In this document: piece after piece, positions 55,601 through 61,600 of the stretch
Numbering within the stretch: position 1 is the first letter of the stretch
How the letters are laid out: every line of letters begins with the position of its first letter
NCBI GenBank assembly: GCA_938084645.1
Contig: CALKEP010000054.1
Coordinates: 7,517-71,516 of the forward strand
DNA: 64,000 nucleotides
Direction of reading: 5' to 3'
Source: an uncultured Phycisphaerales bacterium
GTDB lineage: Bacteria; Planctomycetota; Phycisphaerae; Phycisphaerales; SM1A02
Made by a program: the position numbers

Positions 55601-58600
55601 GGCGAGTCCATTGGGAAGGTCGTCCGATCGAGTGGGCGGTGGCGGACGCTCATCAACTTGCGGAGTATGCCGATCGTTTCGACGTCGTCCTCTGCCTCGC
55701 GGCCTTGAACTACTTCGTAGAGCCTGGCAAGGCGATGGAAGCGATGGCCAGTTCGCTCGTCTCAGGAGGACGCCTCATCGTCTCATCGATCAACGGTTCC
55801 CATCGGACCGAACATGGTTACACGGCGCCAGCGGGCCATCATCGAACACTGTTCAACCCGAAATCCCTGACCCGACTTGCCGAGGACGCCGGCCTGCGGC
55901 CCGAGCCGATCCGCGGTATCCGGATTCTCACTGACTGCCTCCCCGTCGCCTGGAACCGTCCGGGTGCCAAGCGACTCCAGTCCACGGCCCTCAGGGCGAT
56001 ACTGTTGATCGAGCCGCTCCTTCGACGAATCGTGAGCCCCGAACACGCCAAGTTCCTGTGGTTGATCGCGACGCGACCATGATCGGCGTCGGTGCCATCG
56101 ATGTTCGATCGAAACGCGCCCCTCAAGTTCGCGAACTCCTCCGCCTTGCCGGCCTGCAAGGACCATGGGGCGGAGATCCGCTCGGAGGTGCCATACTCGT
56201 GGTGGACGAGATCGGACCGCTCACGGTGCTGCGGGTGACACCGTTCAATGCGTCCGGCGGTCTCCCTCGGGAATCGAGCCAGAAGATCGGTCGCCGGGTG
56301 TCGACCGCCGTCATCCATCGAGATCTCGCATCGGGTCCACCGCTGGTGTTTCCGCTTCATACGCCGCAACAGTCCGATGTCGGACTACCGAGGGGTACCG
56401 AAGCGACCCGCGTCCTCATCGCCCGGGAGGGCGGCGTCCTCGCCCGCGCTCATCGAAACGATGACATCCCGACCCTCGTCCTTGGATTCAGGCTGAGCGA
56501 CCTCGCCACTGAGATCTTCGATCGCCATCGATTCCACGGCGCCGGACACCTTGCGATGGTGATTGAGTGGTATCTCGACCGGTTCGCCGGAGTGCCCTGG
56601 GCCCGTGTCTCCCCCTGGCGCGACGGGCGCCCGCCATTTCTTGTGACCTTTGACGTCGAGGCCGGCACGCCGCGGCGATCCGTCGGTCGTCGAATCGTCC
56701 GCGTCGGAGGTGTCGAGCTGAATCGGCTCCGGCTTCCAAGACCGCTCCGGGGCCGTCGCCTCGTGACTGGCACCAACATGCTCCGCGACGTCGACGGCGT
56801 ACACCAGAGCCGTCGAGCCACGCTCGATCTCCGGCGATCGAAGGTGGGATGCGCAGCAAGGTCCCACGAGGTCGTGCAGTGGCAACTCCATCGCTGGCGC
56901 GGTGCGACGCCACCGGTTCAGCCATCGCACGACCAGGATTTCCGGTCGTTCGCAAGCAAGATCTGCGGCCCTCATACCAACTTCTACTGCGGGGGCGTCC
57001 CCACCCATCGATTCGAAGACGAAGAGATCGGCTTCCACAGCACCGACCACACCCACTTCCACCAGATGAACGCGGCGCGACTCGAACGCGAGCTCACGGA
57101 AGGACGCCTTGACGCGGATGGCGCCCCCTGCGTCGACGTGATCCGTGCACCGGGTCTCTGCTGGAGTCCTGCGTACTTCGCCGCCCTCGGCCCAGCGGGA
57201 TGGCGTGTCGACAGTTCGTTCCGCGAGGTCAATGATCAGCAGCCGATCGTTCCCATCCGGACCTCGGCAGGCTGGTGGGAACTCCCGGTGCAAGGGAACA
57301 TCATGCACCGGGAGACCACACTTCCGTCCGGAGGACTCCTTGCCGATCGGATGATCAACCTTTATAGCCACGACCACGACGTCGACACCGAGGAACATCG
57401 AGCCATTCTCGAGCGACGGATCGCGGCGATCAGAGCCACGAGCCGGATCCCGATGACCATCGGTGAGCTGGGAACCTGGCTCGAGTCGGCCCGATCGAAC
57501 GAGCTCGCATCGGTGCGGTGGCGCGATGGCGAAGCGATGGTCGAGGGGAGTCTGGTTCCGGGTACCGTCATCGAGAATCGAGGGGTCAAGAAACGCCCAA
57601 GCAACTCGATCAGCCAAAACTAGGATCACAGCGGGATGCGTCAACCCACCAAAATCACTCACGGCCCCGGTCCGGGGCCATCCACCGTTCGCACGAGGCC
57701 GCTCCTAGCGCTGCTCGTCATGGCGGTGATCCTTGCCACGACCACCGGGTGCTCGGACCGATCCAGCCCGACCGAATTGAAGGCGGGGACGTCTGCGAGC
57801 AGGCTCCTCGAGGCCACGGAGTCCGTCGGTCTCCCTCCCTTGCCGCCCTATCGCGCCGAGGTCTACGACTATTACCGCCTGGGCTTCCTCGAGGACGGGT
57901 ATCCGGGCCGCTGGACCGACGAGGAGGGACTCGTTCCCCATCCGATCTACGGCACGTACGTCGTGGTCGACTACTTGAACCTCTTCGAGCGAACCGGAGA
58001 TCGACGCTTCCTCGATGCCGCTCGCCGGGTCGCCGACGCGGCGCTGGCGAGGATGGACGACCAGGCCGGCATGCTCCGGTTCTTCTACGAGCCGGAATGG
58101 GGCCTCGGATCCTCCGGGGAACGATATGTCTCCGGCCTGACCCAGGCCCACTACCTCGACCAGCTGTCACGGCTTCACGAGCTCTCGGGCGATCCTCGCT
58201 ACGCGGAGGCGTGCGAGAAGGTGCTGCGATGCCTGGCCACCCGGGTCGAGGAGGGGGGCGTCCTCGCGATGACCCCTCTGGGTCCCGTGATCGAGGAGGC
58301 CCCGCATTCGCCCCGGGACCTCGTCCTGAACGGCTGGTTGACCGCCATCCGCGGTCTCAGACGATATCTCCAACGAACCGAGTCCGATGAAGCGGCATCG
58401 CTGCTCGAAGCGAACCTCGCGACTCTGGCCACGATCCTGCCCCTGTATGACGCGCCAAGCACGGTGAACTCCCGCTACCGGATCCGTGGATATGGCTACC
58501 TTCGCCTGGTCCTCGACGATGCCAAGGGCGTTCGACTGGATCGCCCCACACTCGAGATACCCGGTGATGACGTGTATCCGCTGGCGAACGAGATCGACAA

Positions 58601-61600
58601 TCGCTGGCACATGGGTTTCGTCCGGGGCGTCGAGTCCGCGGGCGATCGCTTCACCGCGACGGAGGATCGGATCCTCCTCAATCTCGTGATGTCGCTCCTG
58701 AGCATGCCTGAACCGAACCTGCTCAGGCTCACGATCGAGACACCGAAGGCGCAGGACCTTGCGATCGAACTCGCCAGGGGCCCCTTCGACCCGCTCCAGT
58801 CGGGCCTTCGCACCACGGACTGGAACAAGATCGAGGAGATCGAGCTGCAAGCGGGTGTGAACGAGATCGAGATCGAACTCGGCTTCAAGGAGATCGATCC
58901 GTTCGTGTATCCGACGAACTTTTTGAAGAAGATTGCAGGCCGTCATCACAACGCCTATCACTTCGTACACATCGACGGCCTCGAGTCCCTCTGCGACGAA
59001 TACGGGACCGAGGCGTTCTGCGACTTCGCCGCACGGTGGCGAGGGTACGTCGAGCAGTGGCCGGACCATCCGGCATACCGGGACGCGGGCATCGAATTCG
59101 ATCGCTACACGCCGCCTCGGGACTGACGCCGCGATGCGATGAACGTCGCAAGACCGAGGGCGAGATGCATCGTCGCCCGAGGCCAATGGGAGGTCTTCTC
59201 GTCGCCGAGCCGGTCGAGGACCGCCTCCACGAGCGATCCCGACGCGCGGCGAAGCGCCACGTCGAGCTGGGGGTCCGCGGATCGGCGCGATGCAAGCCTG
59301 AGAGACTCCCCGAGCGACCAGCTCCGTGCCGGGCTCGGGTGCGTGACCAGGTGCCTGCCCTCACCGCACGGATGCACGAGGAACCCGGGCCGACCTCGAA
59401 GATCGCGAGCGGCCGGCTCGTCCACGATGTCGAGCTTGTCGACCCATCCGGCCGGTGCCGAGAATCCGGCCAGCGACTCGAGGATCCACTCAACGACGCG
59501 ATCCTCGTCGAGACCGTCCTCGACTCCCGCGATCGTGTAGCCCTGGTGAAGGAGATCGAGCCTCATGGAGTCCCGGTCGTAACACCAGCCGAGGCCAGGA
59601 ACGCGGGCCGCCGTCACGAGGCTCCTGACGACATCCCGCCGAGGATCCCCTTCCTCGAGGTGCGACGTCCACGCGGCGAGCACGTTCCAGGGAGTTTGAC
59701 GCATCCGAGGAGAGAACGTGGGGACTCGCACGGAATCGATCTCCACCTCGAAATCCCGCTGAGGTCGCTGCAGCCAGGCGAGACCGCGGTCGCGAAGCTC
59801 TTCGCCGGCTGGACCGATCTGGGAACTGGCCGCCTTCAAACCCTCGGCAACGATGCAGGTGGTGATGACGAATGGCTCGTCGGGACTGACTTCCTTCCAT
59901 TCGAAGCCGAGACCCCAACCGATGCGCTCGGGATCAAGAGTGATCGCGGTTGCGGCCAGTCGAGCAACGCTCTCTTCGGCCCAGGTTCGAAGTTCGGCGT
60001 CGTCGAAACCCCCGATCTCCAGCATCGTCGCCACCGTGGACAGGAATCGCCCCTCGGCCATGGGATGGACGCGATCATCGTCGCAATACTCGTCGGGGCC
60101 ACGACCCCCGGCCTCCGCGAACCAACGAACCTCCAAATCGAGTGCCCGTCGCGCGCGGGCCGCGACGGATTCCGGCGGCGCCCCCGGCTTCGAATTCGAT
60201 GAACGAAGCGTCATTACGGCAAACTATCAGAATCGTGCGGGCTCGAAGTTTCCCGGTACCTTGGAACTTGAATGCGTATCATCATGAAGATCAATTCGAG
60301 AACACCGACGCTCATTCTTTGGTTCTTTCGCCGGATGCTCTCGGTGGCGGGCACCAGGATCATCGCGTCCACCCTTGCGGGCGGACTCGGCACGGCCGCG
60401 ACCCTCGGCTCAATCTGGATGATCGTCGCGCTCGCCGTGGATCTCCAGAGCGAACGGAATCCCGATACAGGTCTGACGATCTCCGTTCGAGACCACATTC
60501 TCGTCGAGGGGATCGACTTTGCGACCGCAATCGGCGCGATCGGTGTGGTCGCGATACTAGCGGCAATCTTCCAATACCTCGGAGACCTGCTCGGCCTCTC
60601 CGCGGCGGCGGCGGCCGTGCGACGCATCCGTGCCGAGGCGGCCCAAGCGTGCAGCAGCAGTGCCGGCGACCGCGTGCTTCGCGAGTCGCAAGCGAAGTCA
60701 ATTGTCTCCTTCATCCAGATCGTGTCCCGGGAGTGTGGGATGGCAGCGGTCCAACTCGTCCGCGTCCCGCTCGCGGCACTCACCGTGATCGCCTGCATCA
60801 CGCTCCTAGGCTTTCTCTCGCCCGCACTTCTGGTGGTGCTCAGTGTTACGGCTCCCTTCTATCTCCTCGCGATCGGGCTTCTCAACCGACGTTCCCACCA
60901 GGATCATCTCGAACACGTCCTCACGGCAGACGCCGTTCGCACCGAACTCCAGTCCGTAATGGGCGAGACCGATCGCAGACATGCGATGACCGGTGTCGTG
61001 CTGGACGAGGAATCGCTCACCCGCGTCGCGAGAAGCGACCGGATTCTTTTCGGCCGGATCGCCCTCGTCCGCAAGGTGACGCTCGTGAATGCGATCACGA
61101 CGGCCCTTGTCATCATGGTGATGCTCGTCTCCATGCAAGCCGACATCCTGGGCCTCGAAGGCGACTGGGGACGCCTTCTCGTTGTGCTATTCGTGCTGAG
61201 GTATCTGGCGGCTGCCATCCGGCAGGCGTCGATCGCTTTCAACGTCACGAGCCGGTTCACGGAGTCGATCAACGCCGCCCGCCGCCTCGAGGATCCCCCT
61301 CCAAGACCTCTCGCGGCAACGGACCTTCCCGAGGGACTCGTGATCCTGTCTAAGCGGATTGACCGCCTCCAAGCGATCCGCGGCATTTCCACGATCGAGC
61401 GGGTCGAACCGATCTTCACCGAAGGCGCGATTCACATCGACCTGATTCGGGAATCGCTCGACGACATCACGGAACCAACAATCGTGCATCAGGCGGGTCT
61501 TGACGCCTCAGCGGAGTCGCTTGGCGGACGACCCATCGTCGTCATGGCCCGCAGCCGAGCCGAGATCGAGTCGATCCGCGGACGCGGCTTCGAGCCCAGA

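Follow-up and report, generated by a model that had tools for sequence, protein, structure and literature searches.

A GLCE-fold uronate C5-epimerase homologue in a strain-variable Phycisphaerales glycan cassette: a candidate for diacetamido-mannuronate epimerisation

The window (the whole 64,000-nucleotide stretch analysed, part of contig C54 of an uncultured Phycisphaerales bacterium) encodes a 496-aa protein that is a GLCE-fold uronate C5-epimerase homologue with its catalytic acid and base kept. The function we consider most probable, at a little better than even confidence, is that of an exported epimerase that acts on an assembled glycan and turns its D-ManNAc3NAcA into L-GulNAc3NAcA. 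The enzyme would be lipid-anchored and act on a uronic acid already within a surface glycan, which could be an O-antigen-like chain, a capsule or a protein-linked glycan. By analogy with GLCE, Tyr441 would take the C5 proton and Glu221 would return a proton on the other face. Judging from gene context, WbpA/B/E/D/I would supply the most likely substrate, 2,3-diacetamido-2,3-dideoxy-D-mannuronic acid or its amide, and the product would be its C5 epimer, L-GulNAc3NAcA. Because the gene lies in a strain-variable cassette beside a genus-conserved core, epimerisation would be an optional tailoring step that alters surface type. The features are as follows, in window coordinates.

54543..55220, minus strand: PEP-CTERM-like protein, the marker of the conserved flank on the left side of the variable cassette (PF07589 below cut-off; same flank in genome G401)
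55312..56082, plus strand: SAM-dependent methyltransferase with an uncertain start codon; the variable cassette begins with this gene (PF08241, E 2e-15)
56058..57623, plus strand: 521-aa protein, polysaccharide-deacetylase-like as a lead only (Atlas 0.94; PF01522 on 24-61% of look-alike cluster members)
57636..59126, plus strand: GLCE-fold (PF06662) uronate C5-epimerase homologue of the inserted-domain clade (496-aa ORF)
57636..57752, plus strand: predicted lipoprotein signal, a hydrophobic stretch followed by a lipobox-like Cys39 (hydropathy and pattern only; disordered in the model)
58296..58298, plus strand: E221, equivalent to human GLCE E499, the proton donor (alignment to 6hzz; E in 65/68 homologues)
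58485..58895, plus strand: beta-rich insertion of ~140 aa separating the equivalents of Y560 and Y578 (modelled with 12 strands)
58956..58958, plus strand: Y441, equivalent to human GLCE Y578, the base, in a YHxxH motif (aligns with the 6hzz Tyr that is F in 6i01; Y in 66/68)
59105..60214, minus strand: 369-aa alpha/alpha-toroid-like protein, a GH76/GH88-like lead (Atlas 0.91-0.93)
60272..61729, plus strand: 485-aa membrane protein with ~6 hydrophobic segments (no family match)
61814..63343, minus strand: GT4 glycosyltransferase, probably starting at 63343 (13/27 clade loci have a homologue near the epimerase)
63410..64000, plus strand: 5' part of a WbpI-type UDP-2,3-diacetamido-2,3-dideoxy-glucuronate 2-epimerase that continues on contig C56 (best PDB match 8sxv, E 7e-78)

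The survey's finding of a glucuronyl C5-epimerase homologue was confirmed by the ORF and by a Pfam profile search, in which residues 164-276 matched positions 25-138 of the 188 in PF06662 (E 7.6e-25; 87.9 bits, gathering cut-off 23.3). The genome holds a single copy of the gene. That only part of the model is matched had been counted as a weakness, which we reject: the match is partial because the ~140-aa insertion interrupts the domain, the catalytic barrel is whole and the remainder of the model aligns at residues 440-473, beyond the insertion. The protein is probably exported and lipid-anchored, as predicted from its N-terminus; a hydrophobic N-terminus occurs in only 29 of 68 homologues. 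The mature chain is net acidic (49 K+R, 74 D+E). Promoter and terminator scans of the DNA gave counts at chance level. RNA-library contigs from two studies contain ~150 bases of the gene (58676-58858), small shares that are no proof of expression.

Structural comparison used a model (pLDDT 91) of a homologue with one residue differing from the 496-aa protein. Its top match is GLCE (Z 23.4-23.7, rmsd 3.3, 255 aligned), against 15.4-15.8 for the next family; the next-best folds are GH8, GH76 and AGE enzymes. Besides E221 and Y441, the alignment to 6hzz equates N232 with human N510 (N in 68/68 homologues), and H445 of the YHxxH motif is likewise present in 68/68. Y281 (Tyr in 67/68), two residues off the ungapped register, is probably the equivalent of human Y560. 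A222, directly after E221, replaces human Y500; Tyr occurs here in 26/68 clade members. The insertion is present in 27/27 clade loci and 0/49 other PF06662 loci. It has no Pfam match, no PDB sequence match and no separate structural match in whole-model searches, and our guess is that it is probably a glycan-binding or cleft-shaping domain.

The strain-variable cassette holds the epimerase, WbpI and GT4 genes, and the genus-conserved core beside it comprises WbpB, WbpD, dehydratase, flippase-like, amidotransferase, ligase-like and PAPS genes. The 521-aa gene, whose product has no Pfam or NCBIfam match, is read in the same direction as the epimerase and ends 12 bases before it, and homologues of the 369-aa protein recur beside the epimerase in L015, L018, L036 and the plasmid locus L128. 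The 141-base overlap between C54 and C56 is real and unique. As special evidence it was set aside, being the assembler's usual overlap (29 junctions of 141 bases). The join itself was accepted because the overlap is unique, the WbpI frame is open and relatives have the same gene order; the two WbpI halves form one gene, with the frame open across the junction and 361 codons after the Met.

The gene content described by the survey (GT4s, WbpB, WbpD, WbpI, AsnB, an SLC13-type transporter and CysC/CysD/CysNC) holds. WbpB matches 3q2i (E 2e-157) and WbpD 3mqg (E 5e-93); WbpI matches UDP-GlcNAc 2-epimerases at 1e-60 or weaker, compared with its 7e-78 to 8sxv. Two of the survey's functional labels stood in part. 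The UDP-ManNAc3NAcA-type pathway is represented in the locus by WbpB, WbpD and WbpI, but WbpA and WbpE lie outside it, with tentative candidates at C49:1-831, truncated where the contig begins, and at C1:181336. The gene called a Wzy polymerase does carry PF04932 ('O-antigen ligase'), but it is no more than a candidate polymerase: its best NCBIfam matches are O-glycosylation ligase/OTase models, below cut-off. PF04932 covers ligases, OTases and some polymerases.

PF06662 is as rare among relatives as had been reported (above cut-off in 1/9 genus and 3/303 family genomes); it occurs in 4 of 400 other genomes sampled for the phylum count, the inserted type in none. The inserted clade crosses phyla and forms a separate branch in a quick tree (SH-aLRT 96). 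We compared 27 clade genome loci (28 minus L037, which has 288 bases) with 49 other PF06662 loci, a set that excludes weak matches and the contig-edge places in G1734 and G1738. At least three of the five Wbp genes (WbpA/B/D/E/I) lie within 10 kb of the epimerase in 11/27 clade loci and a WbpI-type gene in 10/27, counts that include kin and are not independent, so that Fisher statistics overstate. The linked loci fall in separate Bacillota, Actinomycetota and Pseudomonadota branches; 16/27 loci have fewer than three Wbp genes, several lie amid housekeeping or phage genes, and 8/27 hold less than 20 kb. Both plasmid copies are accompanied by genes for a dehydrogenase, Gfo/Idh/MocA, DegT and a 2-epimerase. 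Of 15 Bacillota PF06662 loci, 9 have a WbpI-type gene within 10 kb; as background, 6 of 60 Bacillota genomes sampled have one at any position. Six genus genomes reach 90% completeness or more; WbpI and the epimerase occur together in two of them and are both absent from the other four. WbpI without a detected epimerase occurs in the incomplete genus genomes G402 (68%) and G405 (83%); in G409 the epimerase is frameshifted and on a different contig from WbpI. WbpA/B/E/D occur without a nearby WbpI in four loci (L028, L030, L083 and L165). Since non-inserted homologues also adjoin WbpI in 14/49 loci, the Wbp link is not special to the inserted clade.

The survey's boldest proposal was that epimerisation of the polymer is followed by its sulfation, with PAPS from the adjacent genes, giving a glycosaminoglycan-like product. 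Post-assembly epimerisation is likely, because the homologue keeps its catalytic acid and base, has a predicted export signal and belongs to a surface-glycan locus, but sulfation of this polymer is unsupported, and we regard the proposal as very improbable. The SLC13-type transporter, cysC, cysD and cysNC do adjoin the glycan core in 8/8 cysD-bearing genus relatives, those that reach that far, and a deacetylase-like gene lies directly upstream of the epimerase. The objection that the PAPS genes serve sulfur assimilation fails: neither CysH nor sulfite reductase was found in this 97% complete genome, where the sole PF01507 gene is cysD and PF01077 is absent. PAPS therefore probably feeds sulfotransferases, with sulfation somewhere; the genome has at least eight sulfotransferase genes that could act in trans (8 PF00685, 11 PF13469 and 1 Gal-3-O matches). 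However, the absence of a sulfotransferase from the locus, which the survey itself conceded, was confirmed on C54 and C56 for PF00685, PF13469, PF03567 and PF06990, and on C12 and C20 several sulfotransferases have, by inspection, glycosyltransferase-like genes of their own next to them. The PAPS block, present in 8/9 genus relatives against 1/9 for the epimerase, is a conserved genus-wide flank outside the variable cassette, and it stays where the epimerase is absent. Near PF06662 genes, cysD was found in 0/27 clade, 0/49 other and 0/29 metagenome loci, and sulfotransferase-like matches in 0/27, 1/49 and 0/29; the sulfotransferase queries came from this genome, and distant enzymes can escape such a search. 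The encoded uronate pathway is also a 2,3-diacetamido one, and a diacetamido-uronate carries N-acetyl at C2 and C3, hence lacks heparin's 2-O and 3-O sulfation sites.

Other readings are improbable to lesser degrees. The least unlikely is another amino-uronate, with D-GlcNAc3NAcA converted to L-IdoNAc3NAcA or the mono-amino D-ManNAcA to L-GulNAcA: L028, L030 and L165 have WbpA/B/E/D and no WbpI nearby, L027 and L036 have only a weaker-scoring 2-epimerase, and L-GulNAc-type uronates are described for marine bacterial glycans in passages of PMC3210612. Against it, epimerase and WbpI share the variable cassette, and near-complete relatives without WbpI also lack the epimerase. Slightly less likely still is classic GlcA to IdoA epimerisation on an unsulfated glycan, as in Bermanella marisrubri or E. 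coli O112ab. In the available text of PMC13308652 and PMC12834895 this is the sole activity shown for the family, and the Bermanella enzyme, assayed in 2013 and acting on GlcA, is the sole assayed bacterial member; E. coli O112ab has a PF06662 gene and IdoA, according to parts of PMC3068255. The kept catalytic residues would also fit this chemistry, but no UDP-glucose dehydrogenase lies in the locus (the genome's Ugd-like gene, named by inspection, is on C78 among unrelated genes), and the dehydrogenases adjoining clade members accompany WbpB/D/E. Epimerases and lyases have their first step in common, and a lyase or hydrolase that shares the alpha/alpha-toroid fold and trims or clears glycan after C5 proton removal would agree with the Y500 to Ala change and with the next-best folds. 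Some clade members also lie in prophages or away from biosynthetic loci. We nevertheless give it little credence, since the E499 proton donor is kept in 65/68 homologues and GLCE scores 8 Z units above other folds.

Animal GLCE (human 6HZZ/6I01/6I02, zebrafish 4PW2/4PXQ) shares the alpha/alpha barrel over residues 76-480 at 21% identity, the residues E499, N510, Y578 and probably Y560, and action outside the cytoplasm, predicted here. The bacterial protein differs in the Ala at Y500, its ~140 extra residues and its predicted lipoprotein nature; no N-sulfated substrate pathway lies beside its gene, and its acidic chain contrasts with GLCE's basic binding cleft. The claim of a new bacterial source was overstated, as prokaryotic PF06662 homologues in polysaccharide clusters were catalogued in 2011 (PMC3068255, in part) before the Bermanella assay. 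Those candidates and Bermanella marisrubri RED65, as portrayed in that portion, resemble ours in being bacterial, type-specific, in polysaccharide clusters and often with a signal peptide; the inserted clade is a separate branch, with diacetamido-uronates rather than GlcA as its context (RED65 compared by description). Alginate mannuronan C5-epimerases AlgG/AlgE also perform a polymer-level D-manno to L-gulo conversion, as proposed here, but use plain mannuronate and are not GLCE homologues (same portion). Halobacterium Agl32, also a prokaryotic uronate C5-epimerase, has a short assembled glycan as its substrate but lacks the GLCE catalytic residues (excerpts of PMC13308652) that the 496-aa protein keeps.

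UDP-ManNAc3NAcA glycans of Pseudomonas aeruginosa serogroup O2 (O5, O18, O20) provide a parallel to diacetamido-mannuronate epimerisation: the locus has WbpB, WbpD and WbpI homologues, with WbpA and WbpE unlinked in the Phycisphaerales genome, and a C5-epimerase would interconvert the serogroup's D-manno/L-gulo pair. O5 differs from O18/O20 in D-manno versus L-gulo with an identical Wzy (PMC12004945), and in the serogroup O2 literature we found no epimerase gene named for this difference. Temperate phages of P. aeruginosa carry, after a phi297-type tailspike, a PF06662 member that lacks the insertion, retains E/N/Y/Y and has a predicted signal peptide. All 15 phage records hold the same protein sequence, and 6/7 IMG/VR copies follow a different tail fibre. 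LKA1 gp49, an O5-specific lyase homologous to that tailspike, cleaves O5, which contains ManNAc3NAcA (PMC5701251, in part). This phage context is circumstantial support for the diacetamido-mannuronate reading. Our literature search found no link between P. aeruginosa prophage, glucuronyl C5-epimerase and O-antigen serotype, nor a tie between PF06662 and diacetamido-guluronate, with subscription carbohydrate journals mostly outside its reach.

More tentatively, and with the balance of our judgement against it, many prokaryotic GLCE-fold proteins, the inserted clade included, could be, rather than glucuronyl epimerases, the missing post-assembly D-ManNAc3NAcA to L-GulNAc3NAcA enzymes, moving on plasmids, variable cassettes and temperate phages; the phage member would then separate O5 from O18/O20 and shield lysogens from tailspike lyases. 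Value for heparin engineering is lower than hoped, as no sulfotransferase is linked and the substrate is probably not heparosan. The polymer-level uronate epimerases we found in the literature act on GlcA (heparan, dermatan, Agl32, Bermanella) or alginate mannuronate. If true, epimerisation of diacetamido-mannuronate would therefore give the GLCE fold a new substrate class, explain L-gulo residues where biosynthetic clusters look identical and name candidate proteins for an unexplained step in bacterial O-antigen variation.

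The epimerase under study is encoded by the single C5-epim_C match in the genome:

57636-59126, + strand, epimerase ORF, 496 aa, PF06662

The Pfam match covers residues 164-276 (E 7.6e-25; model positions 25-138 of 188). As the survey's finding had claimed, the family is rare among kin: one of 9 relatives in the genus and three of 303 genomes in the family have a hit over the cut-off. A homologue search returned 76 proteins, 68 of which were aligned, and the profile matched human and zebrafish GLCE, the animal heparan-sulfate D-glucuronyl C5-epimerase, in two stretches (E 1e-17). 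In structural comparison, too, GLCE came first for the AlphaFold model (pLDDT 91, pTM 0.87), which was built on a database copy with one residue different from the window's protein: Z was 23.7 and rmsd 3.3 over 255 residues (model residues 76-480 on chain 183-617), and the next family had Z 15.8.

The catalytic residues of human GLCE are E499, Y500, N510, Y560 and Y578 (excerpt of PMC13308652); Y578 acts as the base, and E499 donates the proton (excerpt of PMC12834895). In our alignment E499 corresponds to E221, Y500 to A222, N510 to N232 and Y578 to Y441, which also aligns to the tyrosine replaced by Phe in 6I01; Y281, two residues off register, is the putative equivalent of Y560. Among the 68 homologues, E221 is conserved in 65, N232 in 68, Y281 in 67 and Y441 in 66, and a tyrosine at position 222, where the epimerase has Ala, occurs in just 26. 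In the N-terminus a lipobox-like Cys39 comes after a hydrophobic stretch, and 29 of the 68 have a hydrophobic N-terminus; the protein is probably exported.

The partial look of the Pfam match comes from the distance between the two tyrosines (Y281 and Y441 positions), which is 147-185 residues in the homologues and 18 in GLCE. The extra part is modeled as a 12-strand beta region and has no match by sequence in Pfam or the PDB. It is present in all 27 related genome loci (the inserted clade) versus 0 of 49 other PF06662 loci. In a quick tree of the catalytic core alone, the inserted proteins form one branch (SH-aLRT 96) that covers at least five phyla, a pattern suggestive of horizontal spread. 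Among the 3,954 family hits of an exhaustive profile search, 196 clusters reached an E of 1e-30 or lower. The epimerase is a real, intact-looking member of a known family and a new structural variant. Two other stretches examined, L081 and L088, hold open frames for large proteins (1583 aa and 928 aa), each with two PF06662 matches in a single frame.

The window ends with contig C54, whose final 141 bases are identical to the first 141 of contig C56. The overlap length is an assembler feature, since 29 junctions in the assembly share it. The join proposed by the survey holds: the 141-mer is present nowhere else, the WbpI frame continues across it, and gene order from WbpI onward is the same in relatives. 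The order in the window is methyltransferase, a 521-aa gene (deacetylase-like by Atlas, a lead), epimerase, a 369-aa alpha/alpha-toroid-like gene, membrane protein, GT4 and WbpI. C56 continues with three GT4s, methyltransferase, PglC-like phosphotransferase, DegT, WbpB, WbpD and 4,6-dehydratase, then flippase-like, amidotransferase, PF04932, second DegT, SLC13-type transporter, cysC, cysD and cysNC. GC3 is 0.70-0.77 in most variable genes, 0.81 in the epimerase and 0.80-0.88 in the genus-conserved core. WbpB, WbpD and WbpI match the solved enzymes 3q2i (WlbA), 3mqg (WlbB) and 8sxv, and candidates for WbpA and WbpE lie outside the locus on C49 and C1. All three solved enzymes belong to the UDP-ManNAc3NAcA (2,3-diacetamido-mannuronate) pathway, which comprises five steps (excerpt of PMC10622841).

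The Wzy polymerase previously named here is a PF04932 gene that may instead be a ligase or oligosaccharyltransferase. Between relatives this gene (L001:13936-15279, compared with L052, L055, L056 and L058) is exchanged for a distant version in opposite orientation (26-29% identity), and its neighbors keep 60-90% identity. The alpha/alpha-toroid-like gene (window 59105-60214) is without a name and is found again close to the epimerase in distant phyla (L015, L018, L036, L128); it is possibly an epimerase partner or a second tailoring enzyme. Elsewhere in the window, 52519-54297 (- strand) encodes a protein of 592 aa that combines EF-hand-like motifs with a long repeat tail rich in Gly and Arg; it is kept in the genus relative G401 (74%), and RNA-library contigs cover it. 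At 44001-48000 lies a second GC dip (0.59-0.61 versus 0.67).

The survey had read the locus as encoding a glycosaminoglycan-like polymer, epimerised and then sulfated with the help of adjacent PAPS genes:

C56:16875-22285, genes for PAPS synthesis and for a sulfate-type transporter, adjoining the glycan locus across the genus

A worry that these genes serve sulfur assimilation was removed: the single PF01507 gene in the genome (97% complete) is cysD, and neither CysH nor sulfite reductase was found in it. Therefore, PAPS probably feeds the genome's sulfotransferases (8 PF00685 matches, 11 PF13469 matches and one Gal-3-O), none of which lies on C54 or C56. All 8 relatives with cysD keep the transporter-cysC-cysD-cysNC-GH57 block and, up to where their contigs end, the neighboring glycan core; one of the 8 has the epimerase. 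In G401, where everything between the PEP-CTERM gene and the phosphotransferase is assembled, other genes fill this interval, and epimerase and WbpI are both absent. Near PF06662 genes, cysD was found in 0 of 27 clade loci, 0 of 49 other loci and 0 of 29 loci from metagenomes, most of the latter short; sulfotransferase-like matches were found in 0, 1 and 0, respectively. Because the block is kept without the epimerase and cysD is absent near clade loci, the PAPS adjacency is a property of the genus and not of the epimerase. The core glycan may be sulfated in trans. A sulfated glycosaminoglycan-like product is very unlikely, and the heparin-like interpretation is unlikely. Better sulfated-glycan candidates are found on C12 and C20, where sulfotransferase genes neighbor glycosyltransferase-like ones (L070:8833-11310, L071:5137-7594, L072:7408-19899).

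What is observed is the fold, the residues, the gene context and the distribution. We favor, by a modest degree, a probably exported epimerase that would act on already assembled glycan and convert D-ManNAc3NAcA(N) to L-GulNAc3NAcA(N). When the Wbp genes of this genome itself served as neutral queries over a 10-kb neighborhood, at least three of the five lay near 11 of 27 clade loci versus 8 of 49 non-inserted loci, and a WbpI-type gene near 10 of 27 versus 14 of 49. Among Bacillota, 9 of 15 PF06662 loci have a WbpI-type gene no more than 10 kb away, against 6 of 60 sampled genomes with one anywhere; kin are not independent, so p-values for this co-occurrence overstate it. Both plasmid hits, one of them pPZ04 (20 kb, 16 genes), carry a dehydrogenase, oxidoreductase, aminotransferase and 2-epimerase set plus an ABC permease. 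Cultured carriers of the gene include Paracoccus zhejiangensis J6, host of pPZ04, as well as Priestia megaterium BHS1 and Pusillimonas caeni. Within the genus, 4 of 10 genomes have WbpI, and 2 of these also have the epimerase. Of the six genomes that are at least 90% complete, two hold both genes and four hold neither. The epimerase copy of the genus relative G409 (L062:833-2328) is broken by a frameshift within the insertion, which counts against the WbpI link. Against it too, the Wbp set is not nearby in 16 of 27 clade loci and WbpI is absent from some. Other amino-uronates are an unlikely but conceivable substrate. Conversion of GlcA to IdoA is quite unlikely, and a lyase or hydrolase is very unlikely. 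In Bacillaceae (L014, L017, L020, L021, L025, L032), the epimerase-Wbp cluster adjoins spore coat X/V genes, which suggests a spore-surface glycan with diacetamido-uronates.

A non-inserted PF06662 query matched 15 Pseudomonas aeruginosa temperate phage records, all with one identical 560-aa protein (PF06662 E 4e-35, signal-like N-terminus):

L130:5857-7539 (MK511006.1, QBI80348.1), also L131-L137, unannotated PF06662 protein flanked by tail genes and lysis genes, weak match to F5/8 type C

It keeps E499, N510, Y560 and Y578 and shares just 26% identity over 112 residues with the window epimerase. The preceding gene encodes a tailspike near-identical to that of phi297 (4RU5) and related to LKA1 gp49, a lyase that cleaves the ManNAc3NAcA-containing O5 O-antigen by beta-elimination (excerpt of PMC5701251). 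Copies at 95% identity occur on seven IMG/VR contigs, with tail genes on one side and lysis genes on the other; one copy has a frameshift, and six lie behind a different tail fibre. O5 and O18/O20 share the same Wzy and differ in D-manno versus L-gulo residues (excerpt of PMC12004945), and serogroup O2 clusters are identical, so the modifying genes lie elsewhere (excerpt of PMC4815439). The phage protein is a candidate for this unexplained difference; its fit with a receptor-masking epimerase is circumstantial. PF06662 genes also follow a tail-fibre gene in a Bradyrhizobium prophage (L129:3506-4591, OP596613.1) and, as an inserted-clade member, lie in a P22-like prophage region of a Caulobacteraceae genome (L034:10001-11263).

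The PF06662 family and its setting were already known, because Raedts 2011 listed prokaryotic genes in type-specific polysaccharide clusters (excerpt of PMC3068255) and a Bermanella enzyme was assayed in 2013 (as cited in excerpts of PMC13308652, PMC12350261 and PMC12834895). Raedts 2011 also proposed the use for heparin synthesis, which pre-empts the survey's "new bacterial source". The literature searched, mostly outside subscription journals, yielded no account of the inserted clade, of the linkage to Wbp genes or of the phage member. The diacetamido-mannuronate reading can be put to the test with purified components.
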